From Chloroflexota bacterium (lineage in GTDB: Bacteria > Chloroflexota > Limnocylindria > Limnocylindrales > CSP1-4): a stretch of 34,072 nucleotides of DNA. The notes below the pieces were generated by a model that searched no databases, was not told the origin of the DNA, and saw only the letters and a list, made by a program, of their open reading frames with translations. The stretch covers positions 1 to 34,072 of the forward strand of contig JBAWVU010000002.1 of NCBI GenBank assembly GCA_037147135.1, in the 5' to 3' direction. Every line of letters starts with the position of its first letter. Position 1 is the first letter of the stretch. Shown here in pieces: positions 3,455 through 20,582 of the stretch. Both the position numbers and the translations under genes were made by a program.

Positions 3455-5608
3455 TCACGCGCGGCCGGCGGCCACCTCGCCTTCGCGGCTGCGGCCGGCG
3501 AGGACGATGAGGTCCTCGTGGAGCTCGAACCAGGCGCTGTGGAAGCTGTCCACGTCCGGACGCGGCGAGGCGACGTAGCGCCGATCCCCGCCCGCCACGA
3601 GGTCGGCGGCCCGCTGGAGCCGGGCACGGTATGTGGCGAGCCGCGGGAGTCGCCCGGTGAGCGGCGCCAGCCAGGCGTCCGCATCCACGTGCAGGGCGGC
3701 GAGCCCGGCGAGGATCTCGGCGTCGTACGCAGGGTCAGCGTGATCGTTGAGGACCTGCATGCCGTCGACCTCGCGCATCTGCCAGGCGGTGACCGTCTCC
3801 TTCATCCGGTGGTCGAGCACGAGGAACGAGTCGAGCGCGGCAAGGGCCTCGTCGACGCCCCATGCCTCCCGGTCGGCGGCGATGAGCTCGTGCGCCATCG
3901 CCTTGCCGTCCGCCGTCAGGCGGAACTGCCCGGCACCCATCTCCGCGAGGCCATCCGCGACGAGCCGGTCGAGCATGCCCGCCATCTCGTCGGGGGTCGA
4001 CAGGGTCGCCGCCGCGAGGCTCGTCGGGAGGACGAAGCCCTTGATGAACACGGCCCGGAGGACCAGGTCCCGCTCCGCCGGGCCGGCCTCGAGCTCCGCC
4101 CGGTCGGGCGCCTCGGCTGCCGCACCCGCCTCGGGCGCCGCCTTGCCGACCGCGATCCCGAGCTCGCGCGCCCACCCGAGCAGCGTCGCCGCCTCCGGGA
4201 CGACCGTCCGCTCGCCGCCGACGGCTCCCGCGAAGATCTCGCCCGTGCTGCCGTCGATCGTCATCGTCTCGCCGACCGCGATCCGCGTCCCGGCGACGAC
4301 GATCGCGTCGGCCCCGACCTCCACGGCGGCGGCACCCACGACCGCGGGGATCCCCCACCCCCGGGCCACGACGGCCGCATGGCTCGCGAGCCCACCCTTC
4401 GACGTGAGGATCCCGGCCGCCTTCGCCATGCCGTGGACATCGTCCGGAGAGGTCTCGGCCCGGACCAGGATGACCGGCCGACCGGCCTCTGCGACGGCGA
4501 CGGCGGCCTCGGGCGTCGTCGCGACCTCGCCGCAGGCGATGCCGGGCGACGCGGGCAGACCGGACGCGAGCGCCGCGACATCGGTCCGCCGCTCGGTCAC
4601 CACGGTCGGGGGGTCGGCGAGGACCTCCGCGACGCGGAACAGGGCCTCCTCGCGGGTGAGCGGGAACCCCGGCGACTCGGCCATGTCGATGGCGATCCGC
4701 AGTGCGGCGTGCGGGCTGCGCTTCCCGACCCGGCACTGGAGCATCCACAGCTTCCCGTGCTCGATGGTGAACTCGATGTCGCAGAGGTCCCGGTGGTGGC
4801 GCTCCAGGCGCGTCGCGTAGTGGCGGAGCTCGCGCCCCACCTCGGGCATCCGCTCATCCAGGACCGAGATCGGCTCGGTCTGGTGGGTGCCGGCGACGAC
4901 GTCCTCGCCCTGGGCGTTGAACATCACGTCGCCGTACAGGTCGGATTCGCCGGTGGCGGGGTTGCGGGTGAAGAGGACGCCGGTCCCGGAGTCGACGCTG
5001 CGGTTGCCGAAGACCATCGCCTGGACCGTCACCGCCGTCCCGAGGTCGTCGGGGATGCCCTCGCGCTCGCGATACGTGCGCGCCCGGTCGCTGTTCCAGG
5101 AGCGGAAGACCGCCTCGACCGCCGCCCGCAGCTGCGCCCAGGGATCCTCGGGCACGTCCTCGACGCCGACGATGTCGCGGAACATCACGACGAATCGGCG
5201 ACGGCAGTTGGCGGCGAACTTCTCGCTGCCGGAGGAGGCGGCGAGCCCCGCCGTCGTGGCATCCGTGAGCCCGAGGTTGAGGATGGTGTCCATCATCCCG
5301 GGCATCGAGACGGGTGCACCCGACCTGACGCTGACGAGGAGCGGGTCGGCCGGGTCGCCGAATCCCCGGCCAACGAGCCGCTCCATCCGGGCCATGTGCC
5401 CGCGCAGCTCGGCGTCGAGACCGTCCGGCCAGCCGTGAGCGAGGAACTCGTTGCACGCAGCCGTCGTGATCGTGAACGCCGGCGGCACGGGCAGGCCGAG
5501 GTCGACCGCCATGACGGTGAGGTTCGCGGCCTTCCCGCCGACGATCCGCTTGACCTCCGCGAGGGTCAGGCCGTCATGGCGGTCGTCGCAGTCGTAGACG
5601 TATCTCAC
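3455..5608 (-). CDS. PPDK-like protein: ATP-grasp nucleotide-binding domain plus phospho-His swivel domain, with the PEP/pyruvate TIM barrel replaced by an unrelated ~205-aa tail
   Basis: GTG at 5608 with GGAG 7 nt upstream. The N-terminus VRYVYD...VGGKAANLTVM matches the PPDK N-terminal signature, followed by VSVRSGAPVSMPGMMDTILNLGL, FTRNPATGE and CDIEFTIEHGKLWMLQCR. The swivel motif is GGLASHAAVVARGWGIPAVVG with the His at aa 410. After aa ~490 there is no PEP-utilizers_C-like sequence. Confidence 0.8.
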   Translation of the reverse strand: MRYVYDCDDRHDGLTLAEVKRIVGGKAANLTVMAVDLGLPVPPAFTITTAACNEFLAHGWPDGLDAELRGHMARMERLVGRGFGDPADPLLVSVRSGAPVSMPGMMDTILNLGLTDATTAGLAASSGSEKFAANCRRRFVVMFRDIVGVEDVPEDPWAQLRAAVEAVFRSWNSDRARTYREREGIPDDLGTAVTVQAMVFGNRSVDSGTGVLFTRNPATGESDLYGDVMFNAQGEDVVAGTHQTEPISVLDERMPEVGRELRHYATRLERHHRDLCDIEFTIEHGKLWMLQCRVGKRSPHAALRIAIDMAESPGFPLTREEALFRVAEVLADPPTVVTERRTDVAALASGLPASPGIACGEVATTPEAAVAVAEAGRPVILVRAETSPDDVHGMAKAAGILTSKGGLASHAAVVARGWGIPAVVGAAAVEVGADAIVVAGTRIAVGETMTIDGSTGEIFAGAVGGERTVVPEAATLLGWARELGIAVGKAAPEAGAAAEAPDRAELEAGPAERDLVLRAVFIKGFVLPTSLAAATLSTPDEMAGMLDRLVADGLAEMGAGQFRLTADGKAMAHELIAADREAWGVDEALAALDSFLVLDHRMKETVTAWQMREVDGMQVLNDHADPAYDAEILAGLAALHVDADAWLAPLTGRLPRLATYRARLQRAADLVAGGDRRYVASPRPDVDSFHSAWFELHEDLIVLAGRSREGEVAAGRA

Positions 5609-5664: not shown

Positions 5665-6723
5665 TCAGGGCGTGATGATGATCTTGATCGCCCCGCTCGC
5701 GGGGTCGTTGAACGTCGCGAGCGCCTGCCCATACTCGGCGAGCGGGAAGCGATGCGTCATGACCTCGCGCACGCGCATCCGGCCCTGCTCGACGAGCGGC
5801 ATGACGCGCCGCATCTCGCCCGCCGAGGCGCGGCACCCGACCAGCTCCAGCTCGTCGAGGACGAGCTTCTGCATGGCGATCTCGCAGCCCTGGGTCGGGA
5901 TCCCCACCGCGGCACAGCGACCGCCGCGCCGGAGCATGCCGAGCGCCCACTGCACGGTGACCGGGACGCCGGCGCACTCGAGGACGACGTCCGCTCCGAG
6001 ACCGCCCGTCATCTGGCGCACCGTGGCGACCGGGTCACCGGCGCTCGAGTCGACCGTCTCGAAGCCCATCGCCCGCGCCTTCGCGAGACGGAGCTCGTTG
6101 CGCTCGATGAGGATCACGCGCGCCGCGCCACGGATCCGGGCCGCGTCGCCGCCGAGCAGGCCGATCGCGCCGGCGCCGGTGATCACGACCGTGTCGCCCG
6201 GGCTCACGTTGCCGCGGTTCGCCACGTGGAGCGCGATCGACGCGGGGTCGACGACGGCACCTTCGTCGAACGTGAGGCCATCCGGCAGCGCGAAGATCGT
6301 CTTGACGCCATGGACGACGAACGTCGCGTCGGCGCCCTGGACGCTGTGGCCGTACTGCTTGTGGAGCCCCGGCCGCCCATAGTTCTCGCAGAGGTTGTAG
6401 CGGCCCTCGACGCACTTCTGGCAGACGCCGCACGCGTCGTGGGAGGTGCCGGCCACCCGATCGCCCACGTTCCAGCCGTGCAGGTCGGCACCCGGCCCGA
6501 GCGCCGCGATCTCGCCGGCCCATTCGTGACCAGGGATGAACGGGAACGCGGGCGGCCAGAAGCCGGGATAGTCGCCGCGCACCAGGTGCGCGTCCGTCCC
6601 GCAGATCGAGACCGCGCGGACCCGCGCGAGGACCTCGTTCGAGCCGGGCACCGGGATCGGGACCTCCCGGATCTCGAAGCGGTTCGGCTCGAGGACGACG
6701 AGCGCCTCCATGGTCTCAGGCAC
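5665..6723 (-). CDS. Zn-dependent alcohol/polyol dehydrogenase (MDR family), paralog B
   Basis: GTG at 6723 with GGAG 8 nt upstream gives VPETMEALVV..., colinear with MSATMQALVV... of the 1546-2601 protein. The same Zn and Rossmann motifs are present. About four-fifths of residues are identical to paralog A by eye. Confidence 0.9.
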   Translation of the reverse strand: MPETMEALVVLEPNRFEIREVPIPVPGSNEVLARVRAVSICGTDAHLVRGDYPGFWPPAFPFIPGHEWAGEIAALGPGADLHGWNVGDRVAGTSHDACGVCQKCVEGRYNLCENYGRPGLHKQYGHSVQGADATFVVHGVKTIFALPDGLTFDEGAVVDPASIALHVANRGNVSPGDTVVITGAGAIGLLGGDAARIRGAARVILIERNELRLAKARAMGFETVDSSAGDPVATVRQMTGGLGADVVLECAGVPVTVQWALGMLRRGGRCAAVGIPTQGCEIAMQKLVLDELELVGCRASAGEMRRVMPLVEQGRMRVREVMTHRFPLAEYGQALATFNDPASGAIKIIITP

Positions 6724-7671: not shown

Positions 7672-9924
7672 TCATGGCGCCTCCCGATCGCGCTCCTGGA
7701 GCGCCCGCCAGACACGCTCCGGCGTCAGCGGCAGGTCGCGGATGACCGCGCCCGACGCGTCCCGGACCGCAGCGGCGACCGCAGGCGCGACGCAGAGGAG
7801 GGCCCCTTCGCTCATGCCCTTGGACCCGTAGGGGCCGGGCCCGTCCTCGTTCTCGACGATCTCGCTCACGAGCTCGAGAGGCAGGTCCATGCTCGTCGGG
7901 ATCCGGTAGTCGATGGCGCCGAGGTTCCGGATCCGGCCGGTCGCGTCGAAGATGTAGTGCTCCATGAGCGTGTGGCCGAGGCCCATGATCGCGGCACCCT
8001 CATCCTGCATCCGCACCTGGAGCGGGTTGAGCGCCTTCCCGACGTCGGAGACCGTCACGTGGCGCACGAGCGTGACGTCGCCGGTCGCCTCGTCGACCTC
8101 GGCCTCGATGGCAGTGCAGTTGAACTCGAAGAACGCCGGGCTTCCGCCGAGGGGATGGCCGGGCTCGTCCTCCTTGCGCATCTCGCCGTTCCCGATGAGC
8201 TCGCCGCCGAGCTTGCCAAGGCCCGGCTTGAGCACCTCGAGGACGGTGAGCTCGCGGTCCGGCAACCGGACGACGCCGCGATCGACGACGATCGCGTCCG
8301 CCTCGGCGCCGTGGAGCCGGGCCGCCATCGCCCGGAGCTGCGCCTGGATGTCACGGCACGCGCGGAGGACGGCATTGCCCATGAGGACGGTGGACCGACT
8401 GGCCGAGGTCTGCTGGTCGTACGGGACGCTGAAGGTGTCGCCCATGACCACGGTGATCCAGTCGAGCGGCGCCCCCAGCTCCTCGGCCGCGATCTGCGCG
8501 TAGACGGTGCGCGCGCCCTGACCCATGTCGGACGTCCCCGCGTACACGAGGACGCTGCCGTCGCCGAGGAGACGCACCGTGGAGTAGGAGAGTCCGGTCG
8601 TGGGGCCCGACTTGATGCCGAGGGCGATCCCCCGGCCGCGCCCGGGCGGGAGCGGGCTCCCCCACCCGATGAGCTCGGCAGCCCTGCGGATGGTCTGCTC
8701 CCATTCCCCGTCGGCCGGGGTGTCGCCCGGGATGAACGCCTCGCCGTGGCGGGCGAGGTTGCGCAGGCGGATCTCGAGACGGTCGATCCCGAGAGCGCGG
8801 GCGCCCTCGTCGAGATTCGACTCGACGGCCCAGTTCGCCTGCGGGTTCCCGAATCCGCGGAACGCGGTCGATGGCGTCGTGTGGGAGAGGATGGTGCGGG
8901 CGACGATCCGCGCCGCGGGCACGCGGTAGGGCCCGCAGGCGGGATAGCTGCCCTTGCTCACGGCCCGGTCGGCGATGTCCACGTATGCGCCGGCGAGGTA
9001 GTCCGCCGCGATGTCCTGGAAGGCGATCCGCCCATCCGCCTGGAACCCCGTCCGGACGCGCACCTCGGCCGAGGTGCGGCGCACCGCCTGGAACGTCTCC
9101 TCGAGCGAGAGGATGAGGCGTACCGGCCGGCCGGTCCGGAGGGCCATGAAGGTGACGAGCGGCTCGAGCTTGGGGTTCTGCTTTCCGCCGAAGCCGCCGC
9201 CCGGATCGGGCGCGAACACCCGGACCTTCGCGAGCGGGAGGCCGAAGACCGTGGCAAGTGTCCTCTGGAGGAGGTACGGGTGCTGGATCGAGCTCCAGCA
9301 GGCGATCCCGTCGCCATCGGGCGCGGCCATGAAGCCGTGGGGCTCGATCGCGAAGTGGGTGACCATCGGGAACGTGTACGTGTTCTCGACGACGAGATCG
9401 GCCCGGGCCACGTCCACGTCGGCCCAGCCGTACCGGTGCTCGCGGACGATGTTCGTCCCGGCGTTGGGGTCGCCCGGGCGGAGGGCCGGGTCCTGGACGA
9501 GCGGCGCGGCGGGGTCGAGCGCGGCGGCGACCGTGAAGACGGCCGGCAGCTCCTCGTACTCGACCTTCACGAGGCGCGCGGCCTCCTCTGCCGCGTCCTT
9601 CGTGTCGGCGGCGACCGCGGCCACGGGCTCGCCGTGGTATTTCGTCTCGCCGACCGCGAGGACGGGGCGATCCCGGAACTGCGGCCCGAACCGCGGGACG
9701 GGCTGCGGGAGGTCCGCGGCGGTCATGACAAGGCGGACGCCGGGCACCTGCTCGGCCGCGCGCGTGTCGATCGAGATGATCCGGGCGCGGGCACAGTCGA
9801 GCGTGACGAGCTTCGCCTCGAGCACGTTGGGCAGGCGGATATCGGCCACGTACTGCTGGCTGCCGGTGACCCGGCCGACGCCGCCGACGCGGTTGGGGGA
9901 GCCGCCGATCCGATCCGTACTCAT
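7672..9924 (-). CDS. Molybdopterin-binding large subunit of a xanthine dehydrogenase-family hydroxylase
   Basis: 750 aa. GGGFGGK, TAFRGFGNPQ and the C-terminal GPYGSKGMSEGAL (catalytic Glu region) are present. The ATG at 9924 overlaps the upstream stop codon as ATGA. Confidence 0.9.
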   Translation of the reverse strand: MSTDRIGGSPNRVGGVGRVTGSQQYVADIRLPNVLEAKLVTLDCARARIISIDTRAAEQVPGVRLVMTAADLPQPVPRFGPQFRDRPVLAVGETKYHGEPVAAVAADTKDAAEEAARLVKVEYEELPAVFTVAAALDPAAPLVQDPALRPGDPNAGTNIVREHRYGWADVDVARADLVVENTYTFPMVTHFAIEPHGFMAAPDGDGIACWSSIQHPYLLQRTLATVFGLPLAKVRVFAPDPGGGFGGKQNPKLEPLVTFMALRTGRPVRLILSLEETFQAVRRTSAEVRVRTGFQADGRIAFQDIAADYLAGAYVDIADRAVSKGSYPACGPYRVPAARIVARTILSHTTPSTAFRGFGNPQANWAVESNLDEGARALGIDRLEIRLRNLARHGEAFIPGDTPADGEWEQTIRRAAELIGWGSPLPPGRGRGIALGIKSGPTTGLSYSTVRLLGDGSVLVYAGTSDMGQGARTVYAQIAAEELGAPLDWITVVMGDTFSVPYDQQTSASRSTVLMGNAVLRACRDIQAQLRAMAARLHGAEADAIVVDRGVVRLPDRELTVLEVLKPGLGKLGGELIGNGEMRKEDEPGHPLGGSPAFFEFNCTAIEAEVDEATGDVTLVRHVTVSDVGKALNPLQVRMQDEGAAIMGLGHTLMEHYIFDATGRIRNLGAIDYRIPTSMDLPLELVSEIVENEDGPGPYGSKGMSEGALLCVAPAVAAAVRDASGAVIRDLPLTPERVWRALQERDREAP

Positions 9925-10406
9925 CGCCCCGCCCTCTCGGCGGTCGCGAGGACGGCGTCGGTGATCTGCTCGTAGCAGGCACAGCGGCAGAGGTTGCCGG
10001 CAAGGCCCTCGGCGATCTCGGCGACGGTCGGGTGCGGGTTGAGGGCGAGCAGCGCCTGCGCGGACATCACCTGGCCGGGGATGCAGAAGCCGCACTGGAC
10101 GGCGCCCTTGTCGAGGAAGGCCTCCTGCAGCGGGCTCAGGCGACCGTCGGCCGCGAGCCCCTCGATCGTCGCCACGTCGGCGCCGTCGGCTTCGACGGCG
10201 AGCATGAGGCAGGAGTCGACGGAGCGGCCGTCCACGATGACGGTGCATGCGCCGCACTCCCCCACGAGACAGCATTCCTTGGTGCCGGTGAGCTCGAGGT
10301 CTTCGCGCAGGACCTCGAGGAGCGTGCGGTTCGGGGCGACCTCGAACGCGCGCGGGCGCCCGTTCACGGTGACGCGGACAGGGACCGTCTCGATCATCCC
10401 GCTCAT
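9921..10406 (-). CDS. (2Fe-2S)-binding small subunit of the molybdenum hydroxylase
   Basis: CLVGECGACTV, CGFCIPG and CRCACY cysteine clusters are typical of CoxS/XdhC-type small subunits. The ATG at 10406 overlaps the upstream stop as ATGA. An alternative ATG at 10397 lies 9 nt after GGAAGG. Confidence 0.9.
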   Translation of the reverse strand: MSGMIETVPVRVTVNGRPRAFEVAPNRTLLEVLREDLELTGTKECCLVGECGACTVIVDGRSVDSCLMLAVEADGADVATIEGLAADGRLSPLQEAFLDKGAVQCGFCIPGQVMSAQALLALNPHPTVAEIAEGLAGNLCRCACYEQITDAVLATAERAGR

Positions 10407-11263
10407 CCTTCCGCCAGCCGGTCGATCGCCGTCCGCAGCGCGCGTGCGCCGAGGACGCGCAGCATCGCGAGGCGGTACTCGGGGCTCGCCCGCATCGACC
10501 GGGGCGACGGACTCGCGTCGGCGAACATCCGCTCGAAGATCGCCGCCCGGGCCCCGTCCGACGCGGTCGGGTCCGCGAGCACGCCGCTCTCGTCGACGGC
10601 GAGGACGGGCCGCGGCCCCACGCTGCCGTAGGCGATCCGGGTCACGCCGGCCTCGTCGACGGAGCACGCCAGCGTGACGGACGCGAGGTCGTGGCCGCGA
10701 CGGCGCGTCCGGCGGGTATGGACCGAGCCCGCCCGCCGGGTGGGCAGGGGCAGCTCGACCGCCGTGACGATCTCGTCCTGCGCGAGGGTCGTGACCCCGG
10801 AGCGCACGAAGAAGTCCGTCATCGAGATGCGCCGGGTGCCGCCCGGCCCGGCCGCGACGACCTCCGCCCCATACACGAGGAGCGACGGCGCGGTGTCCGC
10901 GGCGGGCGACGCGTTGCAGACGTTCCCCGCCAGCGTGGCCCGGTTCCGGATCTGCACCGAGCCGACGACCGCGGCCGCCTCCGCGAGCGCGGGGAAGTAG
11001 CGTCGCACCCGCTCGTCGGCTGCGATGTCCGTCATGACGGTCGTGGCCCCGACGGCAAGGCGCCCGCGCTCCTCGCGGATCGCCGGGCCGAGCTCTGCGA
11101 TCCGCTTCACGTCGATGACGACGGCCGGACGGACCGTCCCATCGCGCAACCGGATGACCAGGTCCGTTCCCCCGGCGAGGAGCCGGGCATCGAGTCCGTG
11201 CGTCGCGAGCAGTGCCACCGCCTCGGCCAGCGTCGCCGGCCGCGCGTAGGCGAAGGTGTGCAT
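10403..11263 (-). CDS. FAD-binding medium subunit of the molybdenum hydroxylase
   Basis: 286 aa. MHTFAYARPATLAEA...LLAGGTDLVIRL is typical of the CoxM/XdhB FAD-binding domain. GGGGGAAG lies upstream of the ATG at 11263. Confidence 0.85.
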   Translation of the reverse strand: MHTFAYARPATLAEAVALLATHGLDARLLAGGTDLVIRLRDGTVRPAVVIDVKRIAELGPAIREERGRLAVGATTVMTDIAADERVRRYFPALAEAAAVVGSVQIRNRATLAGNVCNASPAADTAPSLLVYGAEVVAAGPGGTRRISMTDFFVRSGVTTLAQDEIVTAVELPLPTRRAGSVHTRRTRRRGHDLASVTLACSVDEAGVTRIAYGSVGPRPVLAVDESGVLADPTASDGARAAIFERMFADASPSPRSMRASPEYRLAMLRVLGARALRTAIDRLAEG

Positions 11264-11284: not shown

Positions 11285-12172
11285 TCAGACGACCTTGTCC
11301 ACCTCGTCCAGCAGCACCTGCGGGGTGGCCGCCCGGATGAAGAAGAACGGCCGCTCGCAGAACCGGTTCACGAAGTCCGCCCGCCTGGCTCGCAGCACGT
11401 CGTTGTCGACCATCGGCATCACGAAGCCCGGCGCCAGCAGCTCGTTCGTCAGCAGGTAGTTCTGCAGCGAGTGGAGGAACTGGAACTGGCGTTCGAACGG
11501 GATCAGCTCGTTCGCGGCCGGGTCGAAGTTGCCGTCGATCGCCGGGACGATGACGAGGTCGATGTTCGGCGTCCCCTCGTAGAACCCCCAGGACGGCATC
11601 GCGCCCCAGAACTTCTCGACGCCCTTGTTGGGGGCGGCTTTGTCGGAGCGCTCGGTGCCCTCGGTGCGCTTGCGCAGGAAGGTATCCACGGAGCCCATGA
11701 CGGCGCGCCCGTCATCGCTGATGACCGTAGTCTCGGACGCGACCTGGAGCCCGCCGCGGCGGCCGGCCTCGATGAGGCCCATGGACTTGCCGTGGTTCGA
11801 CTCGCCCCCGAGGAACAGCATCGTCTTGCCGCGGTAGTTCACGGCAGCGCTGTGGGACGGGTGCAGGCCGGCTTCCTCCATCCGGAGGGAGAGCATCGCC
11901 ACGACGACCTTCTGGATCGGGCCGGCCGGCCAGGGGCCGGTGAACGTCATGACACGACCGTCGTAGGAGATCGCCTTGTCGCCGCCCTGGCGCCACACGA
12001 TGTCCGGCTGGTCCAGCGTGACCTCCGGCGAGATCCGGACGTCGGCGAGCCTGTAGTTGAGGAAGTCCAAGTCCTCGAGCACATGCTCGCGGGGCTCGGT
12101 GCCGTAGACATCCACGCGCAGGCGCGCCATCCCCGCCGACATCTCCTCGGACAGTCGTAGCTGGTCGTTCAT
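11285..12172 (-). CDS. Hypothetical P-loop protein with an HPr kinase/phosphorylase C-terminal-like core
   Basis: 295 aa. LHPSHSAAVNYRGKTMLFLGGESNHGKSMGLIEAGRRGGLQVASETTVISDDG resembles the HprK-type block (Walker A G-x4-GKS, then L..L...G..LVaDD). The rest of the protein shows no motif I recognise. Confidence 0.5.
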   Translation of the reverse strand: MNDQLRLSEEMSAGMARLRVDVYGTEPREHVLEDLDFLNYRLADVRISPEVTLDQPDIVWRQGGDKAISYDGRVMTFTGPWPAGPIQKVVVAMLSLRMEEAGLHPSHSAAVNYRGKTMLFLGGESNHGKSMGLIEAGRRGGLQVASETTVISDDGRAVMGSVDTFLRKRTEGTERSDKAAPNKGVEKFWGAMPSWGFYEGTPNIDLVIVPAIDGNFDPAANELIPFERQFQFLHSLQNYLLTNELLAPGFVMPMVDNDVLRARRADFVNRFCERPFFFIRAATPQVLLDEVDKVV

Positions 12173-12217: not shown

Positions 12218-12895
12218 TCAGGCGATCGGTTGAGCGTCGGCCGCCGTCCAGAGGATGTCGAGCATCTCCGCGGCGGTCGCGAAGTGGCGGCGCAGGGCGT
12301 CGGCCGCCAGCTCCGGGTCACGGCGCCGGAGCGCCTCGAGCACCGGGACGTGGAGGTCGGCGATCCTCAGCCGGTCCGCTCCCGGCACGGCAAGGCTGAT
12401 GTAGGTCCTCGAGAACGGCTCGAGGTGCCGCCACACCCGTTCGAGGGTGGCGTTGCCGGTCACCTCGACGATCCGGCTGTGGAAGCGCGCGTCGGCCGTG
12501 GCCTCCGTGTGGGCGTCTCCGACGCGGGCGGCCTGCCTCATGTCGCGGACGCAGCGGCCGAGCTCGTCGAGGTCGGCCTCGGTCAGCTGCGAGATCGCGA
12601 GCCGGGCACCCAGAGCCTCGAGCTCCGATCGGACGCCGAACGCCTCGAGGAGCTCGGCCGCCGACGGGCGGCGGACGCGGGCTCCCCGGAACGCGGTCGT
12701 CTCCACGACGCCGATGGCCTCGAGGTCACGGAGCGCCTCCCGCACCGGCGCCTGGCTCGTGCCGAACTCCCGGGCCACCCGGGTCTCGACGATCCTGGCG
12801 CCGGGCGGATAGCGGCCGTCAAGGATCGCCTGGAGGAGGCGATCCTTGACCTGGTCGCTCAGGACACTGCGCGAGATCGCTGTGCCGTCCGACAT
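12218..12895 (-). CDS. GntR family transcriptional regulator, FadR subfamily (FCD effector domain), copy 1
   Basis: 225 aa. The N-terminal winged helix-turn-helix is RIVETRVAREFGTSQAPVREALRDLEAIGVVE. The helical C-terminal domain contains DARFHSRIVEVTGNATL, an FCD-type His motif. Confidence 0.9.
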   Translation of the reverse strand: MSDGTAISRSVLSDQVKDRLLQAILDGRYPPGARIVETRVAREFGTSQAPVREALRDLEAIGVVETTAFRGARVRRPSAAELLEAFGVRSELEALGARLAISQLTEADLDELGRCVRDMRQAARVGDAHTEATADARFHSRIVEVTGNATLERVWRHLEPFSRTYISLAVPGADRLRIADLHVPVLEALRRRDPELAADALRRHFATAAEMLDILWTAADAQPIA

Positions 12896-12906: not shown

Positions 12907-14679
12907 TCAGGACCCGATCCCGATGGTCGGGCGGACCGTCTCGGTGCTGAGGATCTCGACCACGCCGGCGTTGCCGTCGACGCGGATGCGCTGGCCGGTG
13001 TGAATCACGTAGGTGCCGATCGACGTGCCGACCACCGCGGGGATCCCGTACTCGCGGGCGAGGACGGCCGGGTGAGCGACGACGTCGCCGGCGTTCGTCA
13101 CGACCGCGGCGATCTTGCCGTAGAGGACCTGCCAGGCCGGGTTCGTCATCTCGCACACCAGGATCTCGCCCTGGCGCACGAGGTCGAACTCGTCCGTGGA
13201 GGTGACGACGCGCGCCACGCCCTCGACGACGCCGGGCGATCCGGCGATACCGGCGAGCTTCCCGTCCTTCAGCTCCCGCGGGCGGTCGAACTTGTCCGGG
13301 AAGCCCCAGAGGTTGAGGTAGGGGAACGCGAGCTGCGTCGCGGTGGCCGTGCCCACCCAGTCCTTGGGCCGGATGCCGTCCGCCGCGGCGCGCTTGGCGC
13401 GCGCGGCCGCGACGATCGCCCGCCCTGTTGTGGCGTCCGGTGCACCGATGAACTCGCGCAGGGCGTTGTAGCGGAAGTAGATGACGTCGTCCGGCTGGTC
13501 CAGAACGCCCATCGCGACGAGCTTCTCGCCGAGGGCGATGAGGACGAGGCGGACGTGGGCGTTGGCGCCCTGGTCGATGTAGAAGTGATGGTCCGGGGTG
13601 AGCGGCGCCATCTTGAGGTTGATCTCGTTGGCGGCCCGCATCTCCTCGAGCGCCTCGCCGGAGAGCCCCTCGAGGATCTCCACCGCGGCGGCATCGATGT
13701 CGGCCTTGAGGGCGGCGACCTTCGTCGGGTAGTCGTAGTCCGACGCGTACTGGTCGCGAACGAGCTGGACGACCGGGACCATGTCCTCGCGGAAGCTCGG
13801 GTAGATGAACTCGTGGCTCCAGACCGCGTGCCAGCCGAACTCCTTCTGGTACGGGACCACTCGCTCGTCGATGAACCGGCGGCCGCGTTCGGTGGCCTGG
13901 AGGGCCGGGACGATGTCCGTCGCGGCCGCGTGGTCGAAGGCCGCGGAGAGGACCGGGTCCGCCTTGACCTCTTCCTTCATCTCCCAGAGGGCCTCGATCT
14001 TGTCCCAGTTGCGGTCGCTGGCCGAGTTCTGCAGCCGGCCGAGGAGGACCTGGTTCACCTCCCCATGGGTCTTCTTCATGACCGCCTGGAGGTTGAGCGT
14101 CGCGCTGAGCTGCGCGAAGTTCAGCATCCAGTGGATCTTCCAGTGGCGGTCGTGCATGTCGATGGCGTCCTCGAGGAGGACCGCCACCTCGGCGAGGCTC
14201 AGCTGGTCCTTCTGGTCCAGCATCGACTCGATGTAGTCGAAGTTGCGCTGCATCTCCGGCACGAACCGGGTGCGCCACCAGTAGGTGAAGTTGGTCCCGT
14301 AGACGGGCAGCACCGCGCCGAGGTACGCACCGATCTTCGCGGCGTAGTCTGCGTCCTCGGGGACGATCGCCTGCGTCTCGTAGTTGTATTCCTGTGTCGC
14401 GACGTGGAGGCCGGCCTCGGCCGGGATCGCGGTCGTGTACAGGTAGCCGTTGATCTTCTTGTAGATCCAGTCCGTCGCGAAGGGCGTGCCGAAGCGGCGG
14501 AACATGTGGTCGCACGAGAGCCACCAGCCGCCGATGTCCTCGTACATCGGGCTGAGCGGCTTGGGGCAGTGCAGGTCGTCGAAGACCCAGAAGAGGAGCT
14601 TCTCGTTCTCCGAGGCCCACTCGATCGGGAACGATCCGTCCCCGAGGAATGCGCCGAGGACTTCTTCCTTGAGCGGCAC
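12907..14679 (-). CDS. Atypical PEP-utilising enzyme: ~470-aa N-terminal domain of unknown function plus C-terminal phospho-His swivel domain, with no ATP-grasp
   Basis: GTG at 14679 with GGAGG 6 nt upstream. 590 aa. The C-terminus is GIAGSPGVVEGVARVV...ILVCEMTNPAW...VVTNAGDVVAHPAVLAREYGIPAVVG, a PEP-utilizers mobile domain with the His at aa 536. The N-terminus (FWVFDDLHCPKPLSPM...) lacks any GGKxxNL/ATP-grasp signature. Confidence 0.75.
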   Translation of the reverse strand: MPLKEEVLGAFLGDGSFPIEWASENEKLLFWVFDDLHCPKPLSPMYEDIGGWWLSCDHMFRRFGTPFATDWIYKKINGYLYTTAIPAEAGLHVATQEYNYETQAIVPEDADYAAKIGAYLGAVLPVYGTNFTYWWRTRFVPEMQRNFDYIESMLDQKDQLSLAEVAVLLEDAIDMHDRHWKIHWMLNFAQLSATLNLQAVMKKTHGEVNQVLLGRLQNSASDRNWDKIEALWEMKEEVKADPVLSAAFDHAAATDIVPALQATERGRRFIDERVVPYQKEFGWHAVWSHEFIYPSFREDMVPVVQLVRDQYASDYDYPTKVAALKADIDAAAVEILEGLSGEALEEMRAANEINLKMAPLTPDHHFYIDQGANAHVRLVLIALGEKLVAMGVLDQPDDVIYFRYNALREFIGAPDATTGRAIVAAARAKRAAADGIRPKDWVGTATATQLAFPYLNLWGFPDKFDRPRELKDGKLAGIAGSPGVVEGVARVVTSTDEFDLVRQGEILVCEMTNPAWQVLYGKIAAVVTNAGDVVAHPAVLAREYGIPAVVGTSIGTYVIHTGQRIRVDGNAGVVEILSTETVRPTIGIGS

Positions 14680-14737: not shown

Positions 14738-14956
14738 TCAGCCCGCGGCTGCTTGGTGGCGGGTGATCCGCCTGAAGCGCCGCATGTTCTCGGTGGGCGC
14801 GATCTCCGTCGGGAGACCCTCCATGCTCGACGCCCCGAAGAAGCCGGCCACACCCGTCGTGTGGTAGCTGACGTACCGGGCGTCCTCCGGCTCCGCGATC
14901 GGGCCGCCGTCGGCAACCGTCCCGCGCAGGCGCTCCAGCGCCTCGCCTCGGTTCAT
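14738..14956 (-). pseudogene. Remnant of a PEP-hydrolase-like TIM-barrel gene (partner of UPF0261/Tm-1) with a large in-frame internal deletion
   Basis: 72 codons. MNRGEALERLRGTVADG looks like the family N-terminus. It is fused directly to GPIAEPEDARYVSYHTTGVAGFFGASSMEGLPTE...FRRI, which looks like the family C-terminus (HGGPIA.PEDA..V...T.GV.GFyGASSMERLP). Family members are about 275-285 aa from memory. The ATG at 14956 overlaps the UPF0261 stop as ATGA. Confidence 0.55.
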
Positions 14957-16203
14957 GTGGGTCCCCCCGGGCTCACCCCCTTCGCCGCGGCCCACCGGCG
15001 GTACAGGTCGTCGAGCCGCTCCGCCATCGCACGCGCGAACGCTGGATCGTTGATGTCGGTGGCCATCTCGACCACTTCGACCTCGGGCCGGAGGCCGGCC
15101 TTCAGCTCACGGATGAGGGCCGCGTCCGCGACCGGGTCGTGGAACGGGGCACCGGGGACGTCGATCATCGAGACGCCGCCGAGCGGGATGAACACGGCCA
15201 GGGGCCCCGTCGCCGCGTTGAGCTTGCGGGCGATGATCCGCCCCAGCTCCGCGCACTCCGCCTCGGTCGTCCGAACGAGCGTGATCGTCGCGTTGTGGAC
15301 GTAGAGATCGCGGTCCCTGAACTGCGGCGGGACGGTCTCGAGGGGCCCGAAGTCCACCATGTCGAGCGCGCCGAGCGAGACGACCTGCGGGATCCCGAGT
15401 GAGCCGGCCATCTCGAGCCGGTCCGGCCCGGCCGAGTGGATCCCGCCCACGAGCGCGTCCGCGAGCTCGGTCGTCGTGACGTCCAGCGACCCGGTGATGA
15501 AGCCCGCCGCCATGAGCGCTTCCATCGCTCTCCCGCCGGAGCCGGTGGCATGGAAGACGAGGACCTCGTATCCCCTCTCCTCGAGGATGTCCCGGGCCGC
15601 CGTGACGCAGGGGGTCGTGACCCCGAACATCGTGGCCCCGATGAGGGGCTTCGGCGAGAGCTGCGACACGAACGACGCAGCGGCCTTCGCCATCCCGGCG
15701 ATCCCCGCCGCAGCGTTCGTGAGGATCCTCTCCGAGAGGCCGTTGATCCCGGCGATGTCGACGACCGAGTACATCATCGCGATGTCCGTGGTGCCGACGT
15801 ACGGCCGCGTTTCACCGGAGGCCATCGTCGAGACGAGGAGCTTCGGCACGCCCACGGGCAGCGCCTGCATCGCCGCCGAGACGATCGACGAGCCGCCGGA
15901 TCCGCCGAGGCCGAGGATCCCGTCGAGCCGGCCCTCGTCGTGGAGGCGCCTGACGATCACTGTCGCGCCGCGTGCCATCGCCAGGACCGCCGGCCCGCGG
16001 TCGCCGGCCGCCGCGAGGGCCGCCCTGCTTTCCCCCGCGGCCGCGGCGACTTCGTCGGCGCCTATGTCGCCGGGCGAGGGATCGCTGAGCACCCCAGCGT
16101 CGACGAGGATCACGTCGCAGCCGAGCCCACGAACGCGGTCGCGCAGGAACTCGTACTCTGCACCCTTCGTGTCGAGGGTACCGAGCAGCACCACGCTGGC
16201 CAC
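14953..16203 (-). CDS. UPF0261 family (Tm-1 N-terminal-like, putative nucleotide-binding) protein
   Basis: GTG at 16203 with GAGGGG 6 nt upstream. 416 aa. The N-terminus VASVVLLGTLDTKGAEYEFLRDRV...VILVD is characteristic of UPF0261. Confidence 0.75.
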   Translation of the reverse strand: MASVVLLGTLDTKGAEYEFLRDRVRGLGCDVILVDAGVLSDPSPGDIGADEVAAAAGESRAALAAAGDRGPAVLAMARGATVIVRRLHDEGRLDGILGLGGSGGSSIVSAAMQALPVGVPKLLVSTMASGETRPYVGTTDIAMMYSVVDIAGINGLSERILTNAAAGIAGMAKAAASFVSQLSPKPLIGATMFGVTTPCVTAARDILEERGYEVLVFHATGSGGRAMEALMAAGFITGSLDVTTTELADALVGGIHSAGPDRLEMAGSLGIPQVVSLGALDMVDFGPLETVPPQFRDRDLYVHNATITLVRTTEAECAELGRIIARKLNAATGPLAVFIPLGGVSMIDVPGAPFHDPVADAALIRELKAGLRPEVEVVEMATDINDPAFARAMAERLDDLYRRWAAAKGVSPGGPT

Positions 16204-16716: not shown

Positions 16717-17811
16717 ATGACCATGAAGCCGACCGAGAGCCCGCTCCTGCGGATGACGCGGGAGACGCCCACCCGCTACTGGAACGACTCCTGCGCCGTC
16801 GACGAGCTCGAGTACGCGGTCGAGCGCGGCGCGACGGGGGCCACGTCCAACCCGAGCATCGTGCTCGATGTCATGAAGAAGGAGAAGGCCTACTACGGAC
16901 CGCGCGTCCGGGAGCTCGCGGCAGAGCACCCCGCATGGACCGAGGTGGAGCTCACCTGGACGATCATCGAGGAGATGGCCGTCCGGGGGGCGGCGGTCCT
17001 CGGGCCGGTGTTCGACCGCGAGCGCGGCCAGATGGGGCGCCTCTCGCTCCAGACCAACCCGGCCAACCACCGCGACCCGGTCCGGATGGTGGAGCAGGGC
17101 GTGCGCTTCGCCGGGCTCGCCCCCAACATCCAGGTGAAGTTCCCGGTCACCGCGTCGGGGCTCGTCGCTATCGAGGAGGCGACCGCGCGCGGCGTCAACA
17201 TCAACGGCACGGTGAGCTTCACGGTGCCGCAGGCTCTCGCCGTCGCCGAGGCGGTCGAGCGCGGCCTCGACCGGTACGCGGCGGCCGGCGGGGACGCCGC
17301 GGCCATGACGCCGATCTGCACGATCATGGTCGGGCGGCTCGACGACTGGATGAAGGTCGTGGTCGATCGCGACAATCTCGCGGTCCACCCGGACGCGCCC
17401 AACTGGGCTGGCATCGCGGCCTTCAAGCGCGCGTACGGCATCTTCCGCGACCGCGGATACCGGTCCCGGCTCCTCGCGGCCGCCTACCGGCACCGCCTGC
17501 ACTGGACGGAGTTCGTCGGGGGGGAAGTGAGCCTCACGATGCCCTACCCGTGGCAGGTGCGGTTCAACGCGAGCGGGATCGTGCCGGAGCCGCGGATGCA
17601 CGTGCCGGTCGACCCCGCGATGATCGACGACCTCCTCGAGCGCATCCCCGATTTCCGGCGAGCGTACGAGCCCGACGGCATGACCCCGGACGAGTTCGAG
17701 TCCTTCGGGGCATCCGCGCGGACGCTCCGCGCGTTCGTCAAGTCGTATCACGATCTCCAGGGCGCGATCCGGGACCTCGTCCTGCCCGACCCCGACGTCC
17801 GGGTCGGTTGA
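16717..17811 (+). CDS. Transaldolase family protein (long ~365-aa type)
   Basis: ATG at 16717 lies 7 nt after GAGAGGA. GATGATSNPSIV (the T(T/S)NPS motif) and NIQVKFPVT (Schiff-base Lys block) are present. 364 aa. Confidence 0.8.
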   Translation: MTMKPTESPLLRMTRETPTRYWNDSCAVDELEYAVERGATGATSNPSIVLDVMKKEKAYYGPRVRELAAEHPAWTEVELTWTIIEEMAVRGAAVLGPVFDRERGQMGRLSLQTNPANHRDPVRMVEQGVRFAGLAPNIQVKFPVTASGLVAIEEATARGVNINGTVSFTVPQALAVAEAVERGLDRYAAAGGDAAAMTPICTIMVGRLDDWMKVVVDRDNLAVHPDAPNWAGIAAFKRAYGIFRDRGYRSRLLAAAYRHRLHWTEFVGGEVSLTMPYPWQVRFNASGIVPEPRMHVPVDPAMIDDLLERIPDFRRAYEPDGMTPDEFESFGASARTLRAFVKSYHDLQGAIRDLVLPDPDVRVG

Positions 17812-17857
17812 GACGGGGCGCGGTACGCTCCCCCCACACGCAAGGAGGCACACGCAC

Positions 17858-19384
17858 GTGACAACCGAGGTCGTGCAGCCCGCGACGCTGCCCATCCTGT
17901 CCCACTGGATCAACGGCCGCCCGGTCGAGGTCCTCCCCGACCAGACGGGGCCCGTCTACAACCCCGCGACGGGCGCGGTCATCGGCCGGGTACCGCGAGG
18001 CGGCTCCGCTGAGGTCGACACGGCTGTCGCAGCGGCGAGCGCGGCGTTCCCGACCTGGCGCGACATGCCGCTCATCGCGCGCAGCCAGGTCTTCTTCGCC
18101 TTCCGCGAGCAGATGTGGCAGCACCGCGAGGAGCTCGCCGCGCTGATCACCCGCGACCACGGGAAGACCTTCCCCGACGCGTTCGCGGAGGTGACCCGCG
18201 GAATCGAGACCATCGAGTTCGCGTGCGGCCTGCCGGTCCATCTCGCCGGCCTGAACACGCCGAACGTCTCCACCGGCGTCGACGCCTTCACGCTCCGCGG
18301 GCCGCTCGGCGTCACTGCCGCCATCACGCCGTTCAACTTCCCGGCGATGGTCCCCCTGTGGATCTACCCCATCGCCATGGCCTGCGGCAACACGATGATC
18401 CTCAAGCCGTCCTCGCACACGCCGGGCGCCACCCAGCTCCAGGCCGAGCTCTGGAAGGCGGCGGGCCTCCCCGACGGCGTCTTCAACGTCGTGTACGGCG
18501 GCCGCGAGGCCGTGCAGGCGATCGTCGAGCACCCGGACATCAAGGCGATCCAGTTCGTCGGGTCCACGGCCGTCGGGCGCTACGTGTACGAGACCGGCAC
18601 GAAGCTCGGCAAGCGGGTCGGGGCCTACACCTCGGCGAAGAACGCGATGATCGTCCTGCCCGACGCGGACATGGAGCTGACGGCCGACGCGGCGGTCGCC
18701 TCGGGGTATGGGTCGGCGGGCGAGCGCTGCATGGCGCAGACGCTCCTCATCGCCGTCGGCGACACCGCCGACAAGCTGCGGCCGCTCATGCTCGAGCGGA
18801 TCGCCAACCTCAAGGTCGGGCCCGGCATGGAGCCCGGCATGGACATGGGGCCGCTCTACTCGGCCGAGCACCGCGATTCGGTCATCCGCTGGATCGACAC
18901 GGGTGTGGCCGAAGGCGCGGAGCTCGTGGTCGACGGTCGGTCCTTCCACCACCCCGACAATCCCGACGGCTACTTCCTCGGCGTCACCCTCTTCGACCAT
19001 GTCACGCCGGAGATGGAGATCTACCGGGAGGAGATCTTCGGGCCGGTCCTCGGCATCGTCCGCGCGAAGACGTACGACGAGGCGCTCGGCCTCATCAACA
19101 GCCACAAGTACGCCAACGGGACCGCGATCTTCACGACCGACGGTGGTGCGGCACGGCGCTTCAAGCTCGAGGTGGAGGTGCCGATGATCGGAGTGAACGT
19201 CCCGATCCCAGTGCCGGCCGGCTACATGTCGTTCGGCGGCGCGAAGGAATCCGCTCTCGGAGACCTCGCGATGCGCGGCGAGGACGGCGTCCGATTCTTC
19301 ACCCAGCAGAAGATGGTCACCGAGCGCTGGCCGGAGCCTGGCCGCCGCGGTGCCCTGAGTCTCGTCTTCCCCGGCAACAGCTGA
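17858..19384 (+). CDS. mmsA: CoA-acylating methylmalonate-semialdehyde dehydrogenase-like aldehyde dehydrogenase
   Basis: GTG at 17858 lies 9 nt after AAGGAGG. 508 aa. ITPFNFPAMVPLW, GSAGERCMA (catalytic Cys) and GVNVPIPVPAGYMSFGG are blocks typical of MmsA/IolA. Confidence 0.8.
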   Translation: MTTEVVQPATLPILSHWINGRPVEVLPDQTGPVYNPATGAVIGRVPRGGSAEVDTAVAAASAAFPTWRDMPLIARSQVFFAFREQMWQHREELAALITRDHGKTFPDAFAEVTRGIETIEFACGLPVHLAGLNTPNVSTGVDAFTLRGPLGVTAAITPFNFPAMVPLWIYPIAMACGNTMILKPSSHTPGATQLQAELWKAAGLPDGVFNVVYGGREAVQAIVEHPDIKAIQFVGSTAVGRYVYETGTKLGKRVGAYTSAKNAMIVLPDADMELTADAAVASGYGSAGERCMAQTLLIAVGDTADKLRPLMLERIANLKVGPGMEPGMDMGPLYSAEHRDSVIRWIDTGVAEGAELVVDGRSFHHPDNPDGYFLGVTLFDHVTPEMEIYREEIFGPVLGIVRAKTYDEALGLINSHKYANGTAIFTTDGGAARRFKLEVEVPMIGVNVPIPVPAGYMSFGGAKESALGDLAMRGEDGVRFFTQQKMVTERWPEPGRRGALSLVFPGNS

Positions 19385-19410
19385 GCCGGGCTCGTTCACC
19401 CGGGCATCGA

Positions 19411-19459
19411 GAGCCCACCGCGACACCGGTCCCCGGCGCCGCGGTGGGCTCTTCTTCAT
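19411..19459 (+). terminator. Rho-independent-like terminator after mmsA
   Basis: A perfect 12-bp stem, GAGCCCACCGCG (19411-19422) pairing with CGCGGTGGGCTC (19440-19451), is followed by TTCTTCATC. Confidence 0.55.
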
Positions 19460-19486
19460 CAGGGGCGCACCGACGGGAGAAGAAGG

Positions 19487-20395
19487 ATGACCACGCCCCT
19501 CGACCTCCGCGTCGCACTCGGCCCGGTCGGCGTGTGGGAGAGCTTCGATGGGATCCCGACCGCGGATGTCCTCCGCTACGCCGGCGACGTCGAGCGGCTC
19601 GGATACGGCGCTCTCTGGGTCAACGAATCGGCCGCGCGCGAGCCGTTCGCGCTCCTCGGCGCGCTGGCCGGCGCGACCTCCCGGCTCACGCTCGGGGTCG
19701 GCATCGCCTCGATCTACGCGCGGGATGCGATGGCGGCGCGCGCGGGGGCCCGCACCGTCGCGGACCTGTCCGACGGGCGGTTCATCATGGGCCTCGGCGT
19801 CTCGCACCGCTCGTCGGTCGAAGTGCGCGGTCACGAGTACACACCACCCCTGGCGGCGATGCGGGCCTACCTCGACGCCTATGACACCGCGCCGTGGGCC
19901 GGGCCGGTCGGCCCCGAGCCGCCGCTCGTCCTGGCGGCGCTCGGGCCGGGGATGCTCCGACTCGCGGCGACCCGCACCGCCGGCGCGTTCCCGTTCCTCG
20001 TCGGCGTCGCCCACGTCGGCGCGGCGCGGCGGACACTCGACGAGGCCGCCGCCGCGGCGGGCCGCGAGGACCGGCCGATCCTCGTCGTCTCCCAGGCGGC
20101 GATCCTCGGGTCGGGCCCCGAGGCGCGCGCGACCGCTCGCGCGATCGTGGGGCGGTACCTCAAGCATCCCAACTACCGCGACAGCCTCGCTCGGGTCGGC
20201 TTCACCGTGGAACAGATCGACGCCCTCGACGACCCGCTCGTGGATTCCCTGGTGGCGATCGGGGACGAAGACGCCCTTCGCGCGCGAGTGGACGCGATGC
20301 TCCACGCCGGCGCCGACCACGTCGCGGTCATCCCCCTCGCGCCCGACGGCAGGCATGCGGACCCTTCGACTACCCGCGCGCTTGCCCCGCGATGA
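19487..20395 (+). CDS. Luciferase-like (LLM class) oxidoreductase, probably F420-dependent
   Basis: 302 aa. ATG follows GGGAGAAGAAGG. GYGALWVNES...LTLGVGIASIY...FIMGLGVSH blocks are typical of LLM-class flavin/F420 oxidoreductases. The cofactor cannot be decided by eye. Confidence 0.7.
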   Translation: MTTPLDLRVALGPVGVWESFDGIPTADVLRYAGDVERLGYGALWVNESAAREPFALLGALAGATSRLTLGVGIASIYARDAMAARAGARTVADLSDGRFIMGLGVSHRSSVEVRGHEYTPPLAAMRAYLDAYDTAPWAGPVGPEPPLVLAALGPGMLRLAATRTAGAFPFLVGVAHVGAARRTLDEAAAAAGREDRPILVVSQAAILGSGPEARATARAIVGRYLKHPNYRDSLARVGFTVEQIDALDDPLVDSLVAIGDEDALRARVDAMLHAGADHVAVIPLAPDGRHADPSTTRALAPR

Positions 20396-20484
20396 GCGGG
20401 CCGACCGGCCGCCGTGCTGCCCGTGGCACATGACGACGGAGGGACGACGGGCAGCCGGATGGCGACGCGGCGCCCGACGACGGG

Positions 20485-20513
20485 TTGACCATCTCGCTTC
20501 GGCGGCGTATCGT
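20485..20513 (+). promoter_or_regulatory. Candidate sigma-A-type promoter for the cupin-transketolase unit
   Basis: TTGACC (20485-20490), an exact 17-nt spacer, then TATCGT (20508-20513; TANNNT). Operator copy 3 begins at the last base of the -10 hexamer. Confidence 0.5.
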
Positions 20514-20529
20514 CGATAATCGATTGTTC
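20513..20529. promoter_or_regulatory. Operator-like motif copy 3 (TCGATAATCGATTGTTC)
   Basis: It shares TCGATAATCGATTGT with copy 1 and lies 54 nt upstream of the cupin start codon. Confidence 0.6.
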
Positions 20530-20582
20530 TGGACGAGAACGGCCCGCCGCACCCGACGGCAGCCGGCCCGGGAGGTACGTGG

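Follow-up and report, generated by a model that had tools for sequence, protein, structure and literature searches.

The 590-residue protein encoded at positions 12907..14679 on the minus strand of a 34,072-nucleotide stretch of Chloroflexota DNA (contig JBAWVU010000002.1; this whole stretch is called the window below) is, in our analysis, a distant HpeH/PpsA/CreH-type substrate-binding and phosphohistidine-swivel subunit of the kind found in published two-component small-molecule dikinases. We hold this subunit assignment with high confidence, and consider it likely that the protein acts as the acceptor-binding and phosphohistidine-carrier half of a split, two-protein small-molecule dikinase of the same type as rifampicin phosphotransferase (RPH), PpsAB, CreHI and HpeHI. 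The published two-component systems comprise PpsAB (phenylphosphate synthase), CreHI, HpeHI and AcvAB, and each pairs an ATP-grasp subunit with a subunit that combines an RPH-like substrate domain and a swivel His (PMC12167813). The reaction that characterises the type consumes ATP, phosphorylates a hydroxyl group of a small molecule and leaves AMP. The two-component dikinase is thus a known kind of enzyme, and the Rph_4th domain described below is known as well; what is new is a system-level variant around a distant member of that kind.

The assignment rests in the first place on domain content and predicted fold. A phosphoenolpyruvate (PEP)-utilizers swivel domain (PF00391) occupies residues 502-572 (12964..13176, minus strand; Pfam E 2.2e-19, and E 2.7e-20 in the genome search), in agreement with an earlier note, made from the DNA sequence alone, that had recognised a mobile domain of this type at the C terminus. 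The first 470 residues (13270..14679, minus strand), which that note treated as an unknown domain, are already catalogued: PF27448, Rph_4th, accompanies PF00391 in the protein and in all its close relatives. This N-terminal family assignment comes from precomputed Pfam annotation, our Pfam search of the window proteins having matched the swivel domain only. The region is rich, as the note had said, in Trp (3.2%), Tyr (4.3%), Phe (4.7%) and Lys (4.5%), each above the value for the C-terminal domain, and both peptides that it quoted, AHPAVLAREYGIPAVVG and FWVFDDLHCPKPLSPMYED, are found in the protein. Neither PPDK_N nor PEP-utilizers_C gave a Pfam match, NCBIfam likewise yielded no ATP-grasp or TIM-barrel match, and the structural model agrees with this earlier observation that both are lacking. 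The protein therefore falls outside the PEP synthases and pyruvate, phosphate dikinases (PPDKs), being without the ATP-grasp and the C-terminal PEP/pyruvate TIM barrel; NCBIfam models of these enzymes match residues 475-575 only, the swivel region. Full-length coverage was obtained with the PRK08296 'hypothetical protein' models of NCBIfam, at sub-threshold scores (116-163 bits against cut-offs of 578-730; best, 163 against 578), and RedH, PigC and Rph gave partial matches.

An AlphaFold2 model built on 30 homologs (26-91% identity; mean pLDDT 88.7, pTM 0.88) consists of a small beta subdomain, a long helical bundle (residues 112-434) and the swivel domain, and nothing else. When the model was compared with the PDB by Foldseek, RPH was the sole whole-length match (5fbu, E 4.5e-18, about 600 aligned columns, TMq 0.61, 18-20% identity), and the alignments of PPDK, PEP synthase, Enzyme I and pyruvate kinase were restricted to the swivel domain (TMq <0.2 for PEP synthase and PPDK). 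The structure search that the earlier note had proposed for residues 1-470 thus returned an RPH-like domain and not an ordinary ATP-grasp or PEP/pyruvate-binding domain. In a sequence search of the PDB, RPH matched from residue 377 on; the full-length kinship emerged from the structure search. For HpeH, too, Dexter et al. found RPH to be the sole full-length structural match (PMC12167813). Rph_4th, the AlphaFold model and Foldseek together identify residues 1-470, the small beta subdomain and helical bundle, as homologous to the rifampin-binding domain of RPH, and we presume that they form the phosphoryl acceptor site.

The catalytic residue of the swivel domain is His536 (codon 13072..13074, minus strand), the last residue of the motif TNAGDVVAH (residues 528-536; 13072-13098, minus strand). 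It aligns with the catalytic-His region of RPH, was recovered in the motif survey, and is invariant among 30-32 diverse homologs in two alignments. The HpeH/CreH/PpsA type follows the family consensus T/SxxGGxxxH, in contrast to the window's motif. The TNAGD form recurs in 13 of the loci surveyed and most orthologs have TDAGGxxSH, which marks a subclade-specific Gly-to-Asp change beside the catalytic loop. The gene itself starts at a GTG at 14679 and ends with a stop codon at 12907-12909. Its open frame extends upstream to 14916, but we do not regard that extension as coding because it is Arg-rich, off-frame sequence and homologs are 571-609 residues long. Its third-position GC of 0.93 is what a real gene of this genome should show (window G+C about 70%). 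The window derives from a metagenome-assembled genome of the class Limnocylindria, and the nearest relatives all belong to such assemblies, assigned to Chloroflexota, Chloroflexia or Limnocylindrales.

Comparison with characterised proteins points to the same kind of enzyme. From residue 22 to 579 the protein is co-linear with the CreH ortholog of Rhodococcus oxybenzonivorans plasmid pRB98 (26% identity, E 3e-36), which lies in a cre-type cluster encoding a P450, an ATP-grasp protein, a PEP-utilizing enzyme, a short-chain dehydrogenase/reductase (SDR), a ferredoxin, a reductase, an HD phosphohydrolase and an aldehyde dehydrogenase. CreH, PpsA and HpeH belong to one family (PMC12167813), and the two likenesses drawn in the earlier note, to a subunit of phenylphosphate synthase and to the drug-binding plus swivel part of RPH, are both borne out; we found no literature joining these two enzymes. 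With HpeH, CreH, PpsA and AcvA the protein shares an RPH-like substrate domain with the swivel His C-terminal to it, the lack of an ATP-grasp within the chain, a conserved catalytic His, a catabolic setting, and a separate ATP-grasp protein encoded in the cluster. RPH (PDB 5fbu, 5fbt and 5hv1) is the only solved structure that spans both domains and has the same swivel-His mechanism, but it is a single chain with an N-terminal ATP-grasp. HpeH alone moves phosphate between phenolic compounds, and the substitution H581Q abolishes its activity (PMC12167813). A library of representatives, clustered at 50% identity, yielded 555 clusters that match the window's protein at E <= 1e-30; among the relatives about 30% identical to it are both two-domain proteins of about 550 residues and single-chain RPH-like proteins of about 850 residues, which align from about residue 300. 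A separate observation concerns a Bacillus thuringiensis plasmid (L098:5977-8581), on which genes for a 332-residue ATP-grasp protein and a 538-residue swivel protein (23% identical to ours) directly follow a nonribosomal peptide synthetase gene, an arrangement that points to a biosynthetic role for enzymes of this kind.

The characterised two-component dikinases each include an ATP-grasp subunit, and the probable counterpart here, judged from sequence and held with moderate confidence, is a 717-residue protein encoded at 3455..5608 (minus strand). It is a truncated PPDK of the VadK/PRK05878 type (508 bits against the NCBIfam PRK05878 cut-off of 456) and contains an ATP-grasp, its own swivel domain with the swivel His kept at position 410, and a tail of about 200-250 residues (3455-4060, minus strand). 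The HpeI/CreI/PpsB-type ATP-grasp subunits of the characterised systems are smaller (about 320-380 residues) and are encoded beside the HpeH-type genes, whereas no CreI/HpeI-type subunit was found in the window's genome, which is 86% complete; unlike HpeHI, CreHI and PpsAB, the cluster has its ATP-grasp in a PPDK-derived protein with a swivel His and an extra tail. Among known proteins, the 717-residue protein is most closely related to VadK (Rv1127c) of Mycobacterium tuberculosis, with which it shares the ATP-grasp, the swivel His and the lack of a PEP/pyruvate barrel. VadK autophosphorylates on the swivel His in vitro (PMC13400623). The two differ in the fused tail and in linkage, VadK being linked to methylcitrate-cycle genes and the 717-residue protein to an HpeH-type protein and a molybdenum hydroxylase.

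The earlier note had named the 3455-5608 protein as the likely partner, and genome content and gene linkage support that choice. PPDK_N occurs only twice in the genome, in the 717-residue protein and in a longer PPDK-like frame on contig C157, and the 717-residue protein is the only non-housekeeping ATP-grasp protein. For linkage we used 80 related loci from species-representative genomes, all Chloroflexota, in which the subunit is 66-91% identical to the window's; window proteins served as queries, and matches were counted up to 10 kb from the subunit gene. A PPDK-like protein is present in 53 of the 80. Of the 51 loci whose downstream flank is complete, 43 have the PPDK-like gene downstream of the subunit gene; of the 57 whose upstream flank is complete, 7 have it upstream, which makes 50 loci together. 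In four rearranged loci it adjoins the subunit gene divergently.

The strongest computational argument for the partner comes from more distant orthologs. Megaplasmid NC_011961.1 of Thermomicrobium roseum DSM 5159 encodes an ortholog 46% identical to the window's protein, in a cluster at about 56-72 kb with an ABC importer, UPF0261, PEP hydrolase, GntR, a cyclase, a 323-residue 'PEP/pyruvate-binding domain' protein, an FAD subunit, FAH-family and ABM proteins, and molybdenum and 2Fe-2S subunits. The 323-residue protein is 39% identical to the CreI ortholog but only 30% identical to the N terminus of the 717-residue protein. A search of 251 genomes of the phylum Chloroflexota yielded further orthologs, at 51-57% identity, in clusters that run subunit, GntR, cyclase, standalone ATP-grasp, molybdenum hydroxylase subunits, FAH and ABM; in one genome (G007) the standalone ATP-grasp gene directly follows the ortholog. 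With T. roseum, three further Chloroflexota genomes show this arrangement, the overall identity of their orthologs being given as 48-57%. Molybdenum hydroxylase genes are present in every more distant ortholog cluster examined, and no VadK-type gene is present in the orthologous clusters that have a plain ATP-grasp. The linkage to an ATP-grasp gene that the earlier note expected of homologs is thus seen in two forms: Limnocylindria have the 3455-5608 type, and Thermomicrobium and other Chloroflexota families a standalone CreI-type protein. In a maximum-likelihood tree the Limnocylindria clade, with its VadK-type partner (support 100/100), is nested within a Chloroflexota group, the remaining branches of which carry the standalone ATP-grasp, and its sister is a single further family (f22; support 100/100). 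From this nesting and the cluster contents we conclude that the ATP-side partner was exchanged within one ortholog group while the molybdenum hydroxylase, the cyclase and the regulator stayed. Plain ATP-grasp present with the VadK-type gene absent is the pattern that functional replacement would give, and the exchange therefore argues that the 717-residue protein does the job of the ATP-grasp subunit. The Gly-to-Asp change in the swivel motif was also considered as a signal of co-variation and was dropped because it does not follow partner type.

Similar associations occur outside the Chloroflexota. A Diaphorobacter plasmid has adjacent genes for a 572-residue PEP-utilizing enzyme (29% identical to our subunit over residues 277-578), a 206-residue hypothetical protein and a 506-residue 'pyruvate, phosphate dikinase' (46% identical to residues 23-461 of the 717-residue protein). 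The 206-residue protein is 39% identical to residues 516-707 of the 717-residue protein, so that the fused tail is here a separate gene, lying between the swivel and truncated PPDK genes. A Rhodococcus plasmid encodes a 412-residue PEP-utilizing enzyme and a 463-residue truncated PPDK (43% identity), with a tail homolog inside the 3' end of a gene annotated as AMP-binding protein. Thus the association of an HpeH-type protein, a truncated PPDK and an Rv1126c-like tail recurs in three phyla. Tail homologs outside the window were noted at L109:10890-11510 and L101:10817-11434.

A regular companion of the subunit, a three-subunit molybdenum hydroxylase of the xanthine-dehydrogenase family (7672..11263, minus strand; FAD subunit 10403-11263, 2Fe-2S subunit 9921-10397, molybdenum subunit 7672-9924), is found in most of the 80 loci (FAD subunit 67, 2Fe-2S subunit 66, molybdenum subunit 60). 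Characterised dikinase systems have a carboxylase or a P450 as the downstream enzyme in place of such a hydroxylase. The one experimental precedent for the coupling is that of Ensifer adhaerens HP1 (WGS VHKK01), whose four-component molybdenum enzyme 3-hydroxypyridine dehydrogenase (HpdA) works only when orf9, a 'pyruvate-phosphate dikinase', and orf10, a 'PEP-utilizing protein mobile subunit', are present; growth is lost when either is knocked out, and the authors offered no explanation of what the two proteins do (bioRxiv 10.1101/2020.01.08.898148). This preprint was the only literature that we found on molybdenum hydroxylases with PEP-utilizing partners. By annotation, both clusters combine a multi-subunit xanthine-dehydrogenase-family hydroxylase with neighbouring genes for a PEP-utilizing and a PPDK-annotated protein, and both have an ABC transporter and a GntR regulator. 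The Ensifer cluster differs in having the maleamate-pathway genes hpdBCDE and an SRPBCC subunit, none of which is recognisable in the window (its Pfam annotation contains no isochorismatase-type amidase, maleate isomerase or M29-like dioxygenase), and the window differs in having a PEP carboxykinase (PEPCK)-fold P-loop protein, a cyclase-family hydrolase, a Zn-dependent alcohol dehydrogenase and an SDR. Since maleamate-pathway genes are not recognisable, the substrate is likely to differ from 3-hydroxypyridine, and some other hydroxylated compound, aromatic or N-heteroaromatic, is the probable candidate.

From the observed fold, domain content, conserved His and gene linkage we infer a partner, a phosphoryl route, a class of substrate and an order of steps, taking RPH, PpsAB and HpeHI as guides. 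ATP would bind to the ATP-grasp of a separate protein, most likely the 717-residue protein. His536 would then be phosphorylated, either directly at the partner's ATP-grasp or by relay from the partner's His410, and an ATP-grasp of PPDK type might also take phosphate and release pyrophosphate. The swivel domain would turn to the N-terminal helical domain, where the phosphoryl group would pass to a phenolic or enolic hydroxyl of the bound small molecule. In parallel with the Ensifer system, the product would probably feed the molybdenum hydroxylase, the cyclase-type hydrolase and the dehydrogenases of the GntR-controlled cluster, an order that would put the phosphorylation at the head of the pathway, as the earlier note suggested.

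A broader version of this scheme, which we offer tentatively and regard as rather doubtful, is that the HpeH-type carrier, the VadK-type truncated PPDK and the Rv1126c-like tail constitute a distinct, portable dikinase module distributed across Chloroflexota, Actinomycetota and Betaproteobacteria. The PPDK-derived protein would load the carrier, perhaps through relay from one His to the other, or else in the manner of PPDK, consuming phosphate and releasing pyrophosphate. What the linked molybdenum hydroxylase really acts on would then be the phosphorylated (hetero)aromatic compound. If true, this would account for the kinase requirement of 3-hydroxypyridine dehydrogenase, and would mean that the VadK type began as, and maybe still is, a loader of phosphohistidine carriers and not a stand-alone regulatory kinase.

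Several observations weigh against reading the protein as one half of a split dikinase with the 717-residue protein as the other. HpeH, CreH and PpsA are pairwise about 45% identical, whereas our subunit is only 26% identical to the CreH ortholog, for which reason we place it in a separate, distant clade, where the tree places it also; to RPH it is 18-20% identical. In the window's subclade, GD replaces the conserved GG ahead of the catalytic His. The proposed partner lies seven genes away and not adjacent, and it has an intact His410, a residue for which the ATP-grasp half of a two-component system has no need. Because all 80 loci come from one class, their synteny may in part be inherited and not selected. 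The maleamate-pathway genes of the Ensifer precedent have no recognisable counterpart. Finally, the VadK type in M. tuberculosis has been described as a regulatory kinase that interacts with methylcitrate-cycle enzymes (PMC13400623). If the 717-residue protein were likewise a regulatory histidine kinase only, the carrier would be loaded by another ATP-grasp protein, such as a housekeeping PPDK or one whose gene is missing from the assembly, or would act as an ATP-free phosphotransferase between small-molecule phosphates. Retention of His410 and a genome only 86% complete are compatible with this alternative, and HpeH alone does exchange phosphate between aryl phosphates (PMC12167813). We nevertheless think it unlikely: the linkage survives rearrangements and recurs in three phyla, and the orthologous clusters of other lineages have a plain ATP-grasp and no VadK-type gene.

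The genes around the subunit form a co-directional minus-strand run in the order UPF0261, PEP-hydrolase relic, subunit, GntR, a 295-residue protein, the FAD, 2Fe-2S and molybdenum subunits, cyclase, Zn-dependent alcohol dehydrogenase, the 717-residue protein and SDR. The GntR/FCD regulator (12218..12895, minus strand), directly downstream of the subunit gene, is present in 71 of the 80 loci, the 295-residue protein (11285..12172, minus strand) in 68, and the cyclase-family metal hydrolase (PF04199; 6762..7652, minus strand) in 50; the alcohol dehydrogenase lies at 5665..6723 (minus strand). The surroundings in the window are catabolic (ABC importer, GntR repressor, molybdenum hydroxylase and dehydrogenases) and include no biosynthetic genes, and from sequence we regard the whole as a putative conserved, GntR-controlled catabolic cluster of soil Chloroflexota. 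In many loci the run is flanked by genes for a transaldolase, an aldehyde dehydrogenase, a small cupin and a split transketolase (window 16717-22791, plus strand). Of the 80 loci, 51 have the cupin, 45 and 42 the two transketolase halves and 40 the transaldolase. The T. roseum-type clusters carry FAH-family and ABM proteins, and none of this set was found there.

The 295-residue protein matched no Pfam or NCBIfam family. Its P-loop, GGESNHGKS, is invariant, and a profile search gave a weak match to ATP-dependent PEPCK (E 0.048) around the YAGE-IKK, H-x-SA and P-loop motifs. Its AlphaFold model (pLDDT 82.8) retrieved PEPCK as the top 35 Foldseek matches (E about 3e-7, TMq 0.36-0.48), followed by HPr kinase, and the protein may thus be described as a P-loop protein of PEPCK/HprK-like fold; we speculate that a phosphorylated intermediate might be its substrate. 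The T. roseum-type clusters lack it. A 205-residue hypothetical protein of T. roseum was considered as a counterpart of it or of the partner's tail and proved to be related to neither, and a 304-residue hypothetical protein encoded upstream of the Diaphorobacter swivel gene showed no homology to it at E 1e-4. We found no description in the literature of a system with a VadK-type partner bearing a fused tail, coupling to a molybdenum hydroxylase and a PEPCK-fold companion.

Upstream of the subunit gene lie UPF0261, a Tm-1/MarK-like ATP-binding protein (14953..16203, minus strand) that is an optional addition to the cluster, and a 72-codon relic of a PEP-hydrolase-like TIM-barrel gene (14738..14956, minus strand). 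Their position, both here and in T. roseum, directly upstream of the subunit gene raises a further alternative, that the subunit is the swivel part of a three-protein, PEP-synthase-like machine with UPF0261 and the PEP-hydrolase-like barrel and that the PPDK-like protein is not its partner. One locus (L006) has the subunit with only GntR, UPF0261 and PEP hydrolase, and a UPF0261 protein, MarK, is an aromatic kinase; MarK is, however, a stand-alone homodimer that produces ADP (PMC12624787). The co-occurrence counts and the deletion of the barrel gene led us to reject this arrangement, which we consider very improbable. UPF0261 is found in 25 and PEP hydrolase in 20 of the 80 loci, against 53 for the PPDK-like protein and 60-68 for the molybdenum hydroxylase genes and the 295-residue protein, and around the orthologs of three genomes (G111, G075 and G007) the stretch examined contains an ATP-grasp gene but lacks the UPF0261 pair. 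A PEP-hydrolase gene normally follows UPF0261 (279 residues in locus L005), whereas the window's relic, through an internal deletion, joins about 18 N-terminal and about 50 C-terminal residues in frame. The 86%-complete genome yielded no second copy and the subunit is intact, and for these reasons the pair is unlikely to be an obligatory partner. Between T. roseum and Limnocylindria (L097:6490-8593 against window 14953-16203 and L005:9132-9971), UPF0261 is 69% and PEP hydrolase 75% identical, whereas other cluster proteins are only 24-50% identical, which suggests either very strong constraint or recent transfer of the gene pair. Hardly credible is a resistance or biosynthetic role, as a fragment of a rifamycin-type phosphotransferase or a PigC/RedH-like ATP-dependent condensing enzyme: RPH is the best relative of solved structure, and RedH (residues 157-578, E 1e-40) and PigC (residues 206-576, E 4e-35) do match, but the scores fall far under the cut-offs (Rph NF041857, 108 bits against 999, and NF000283, 92 against 1700; RedH, 136 against 1350; PigC, 121 against 1300), the protein has no fused ATP-grasp, and the surroundings are catabolic with no biosynthetic genes.

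Until now, the breakdown pathways linked with two-component dikinases were those of phenol, cresol and acetovanillone, and the clade described here, which includes hundreds of uncultured soil Chloroflexota species and the cultured Thermomicrobium roseum, adds molybdenum hydroxylases to their setting. Exchange of the plain ATP-grasp partner for one of VadK type inside a single ortholog group amounts to a natural experiment on truncated PPDKs and bears on the interpretation of VadK. The practical yield is a testable set of three proteins, and a culturable organism in which the substrate might be found.

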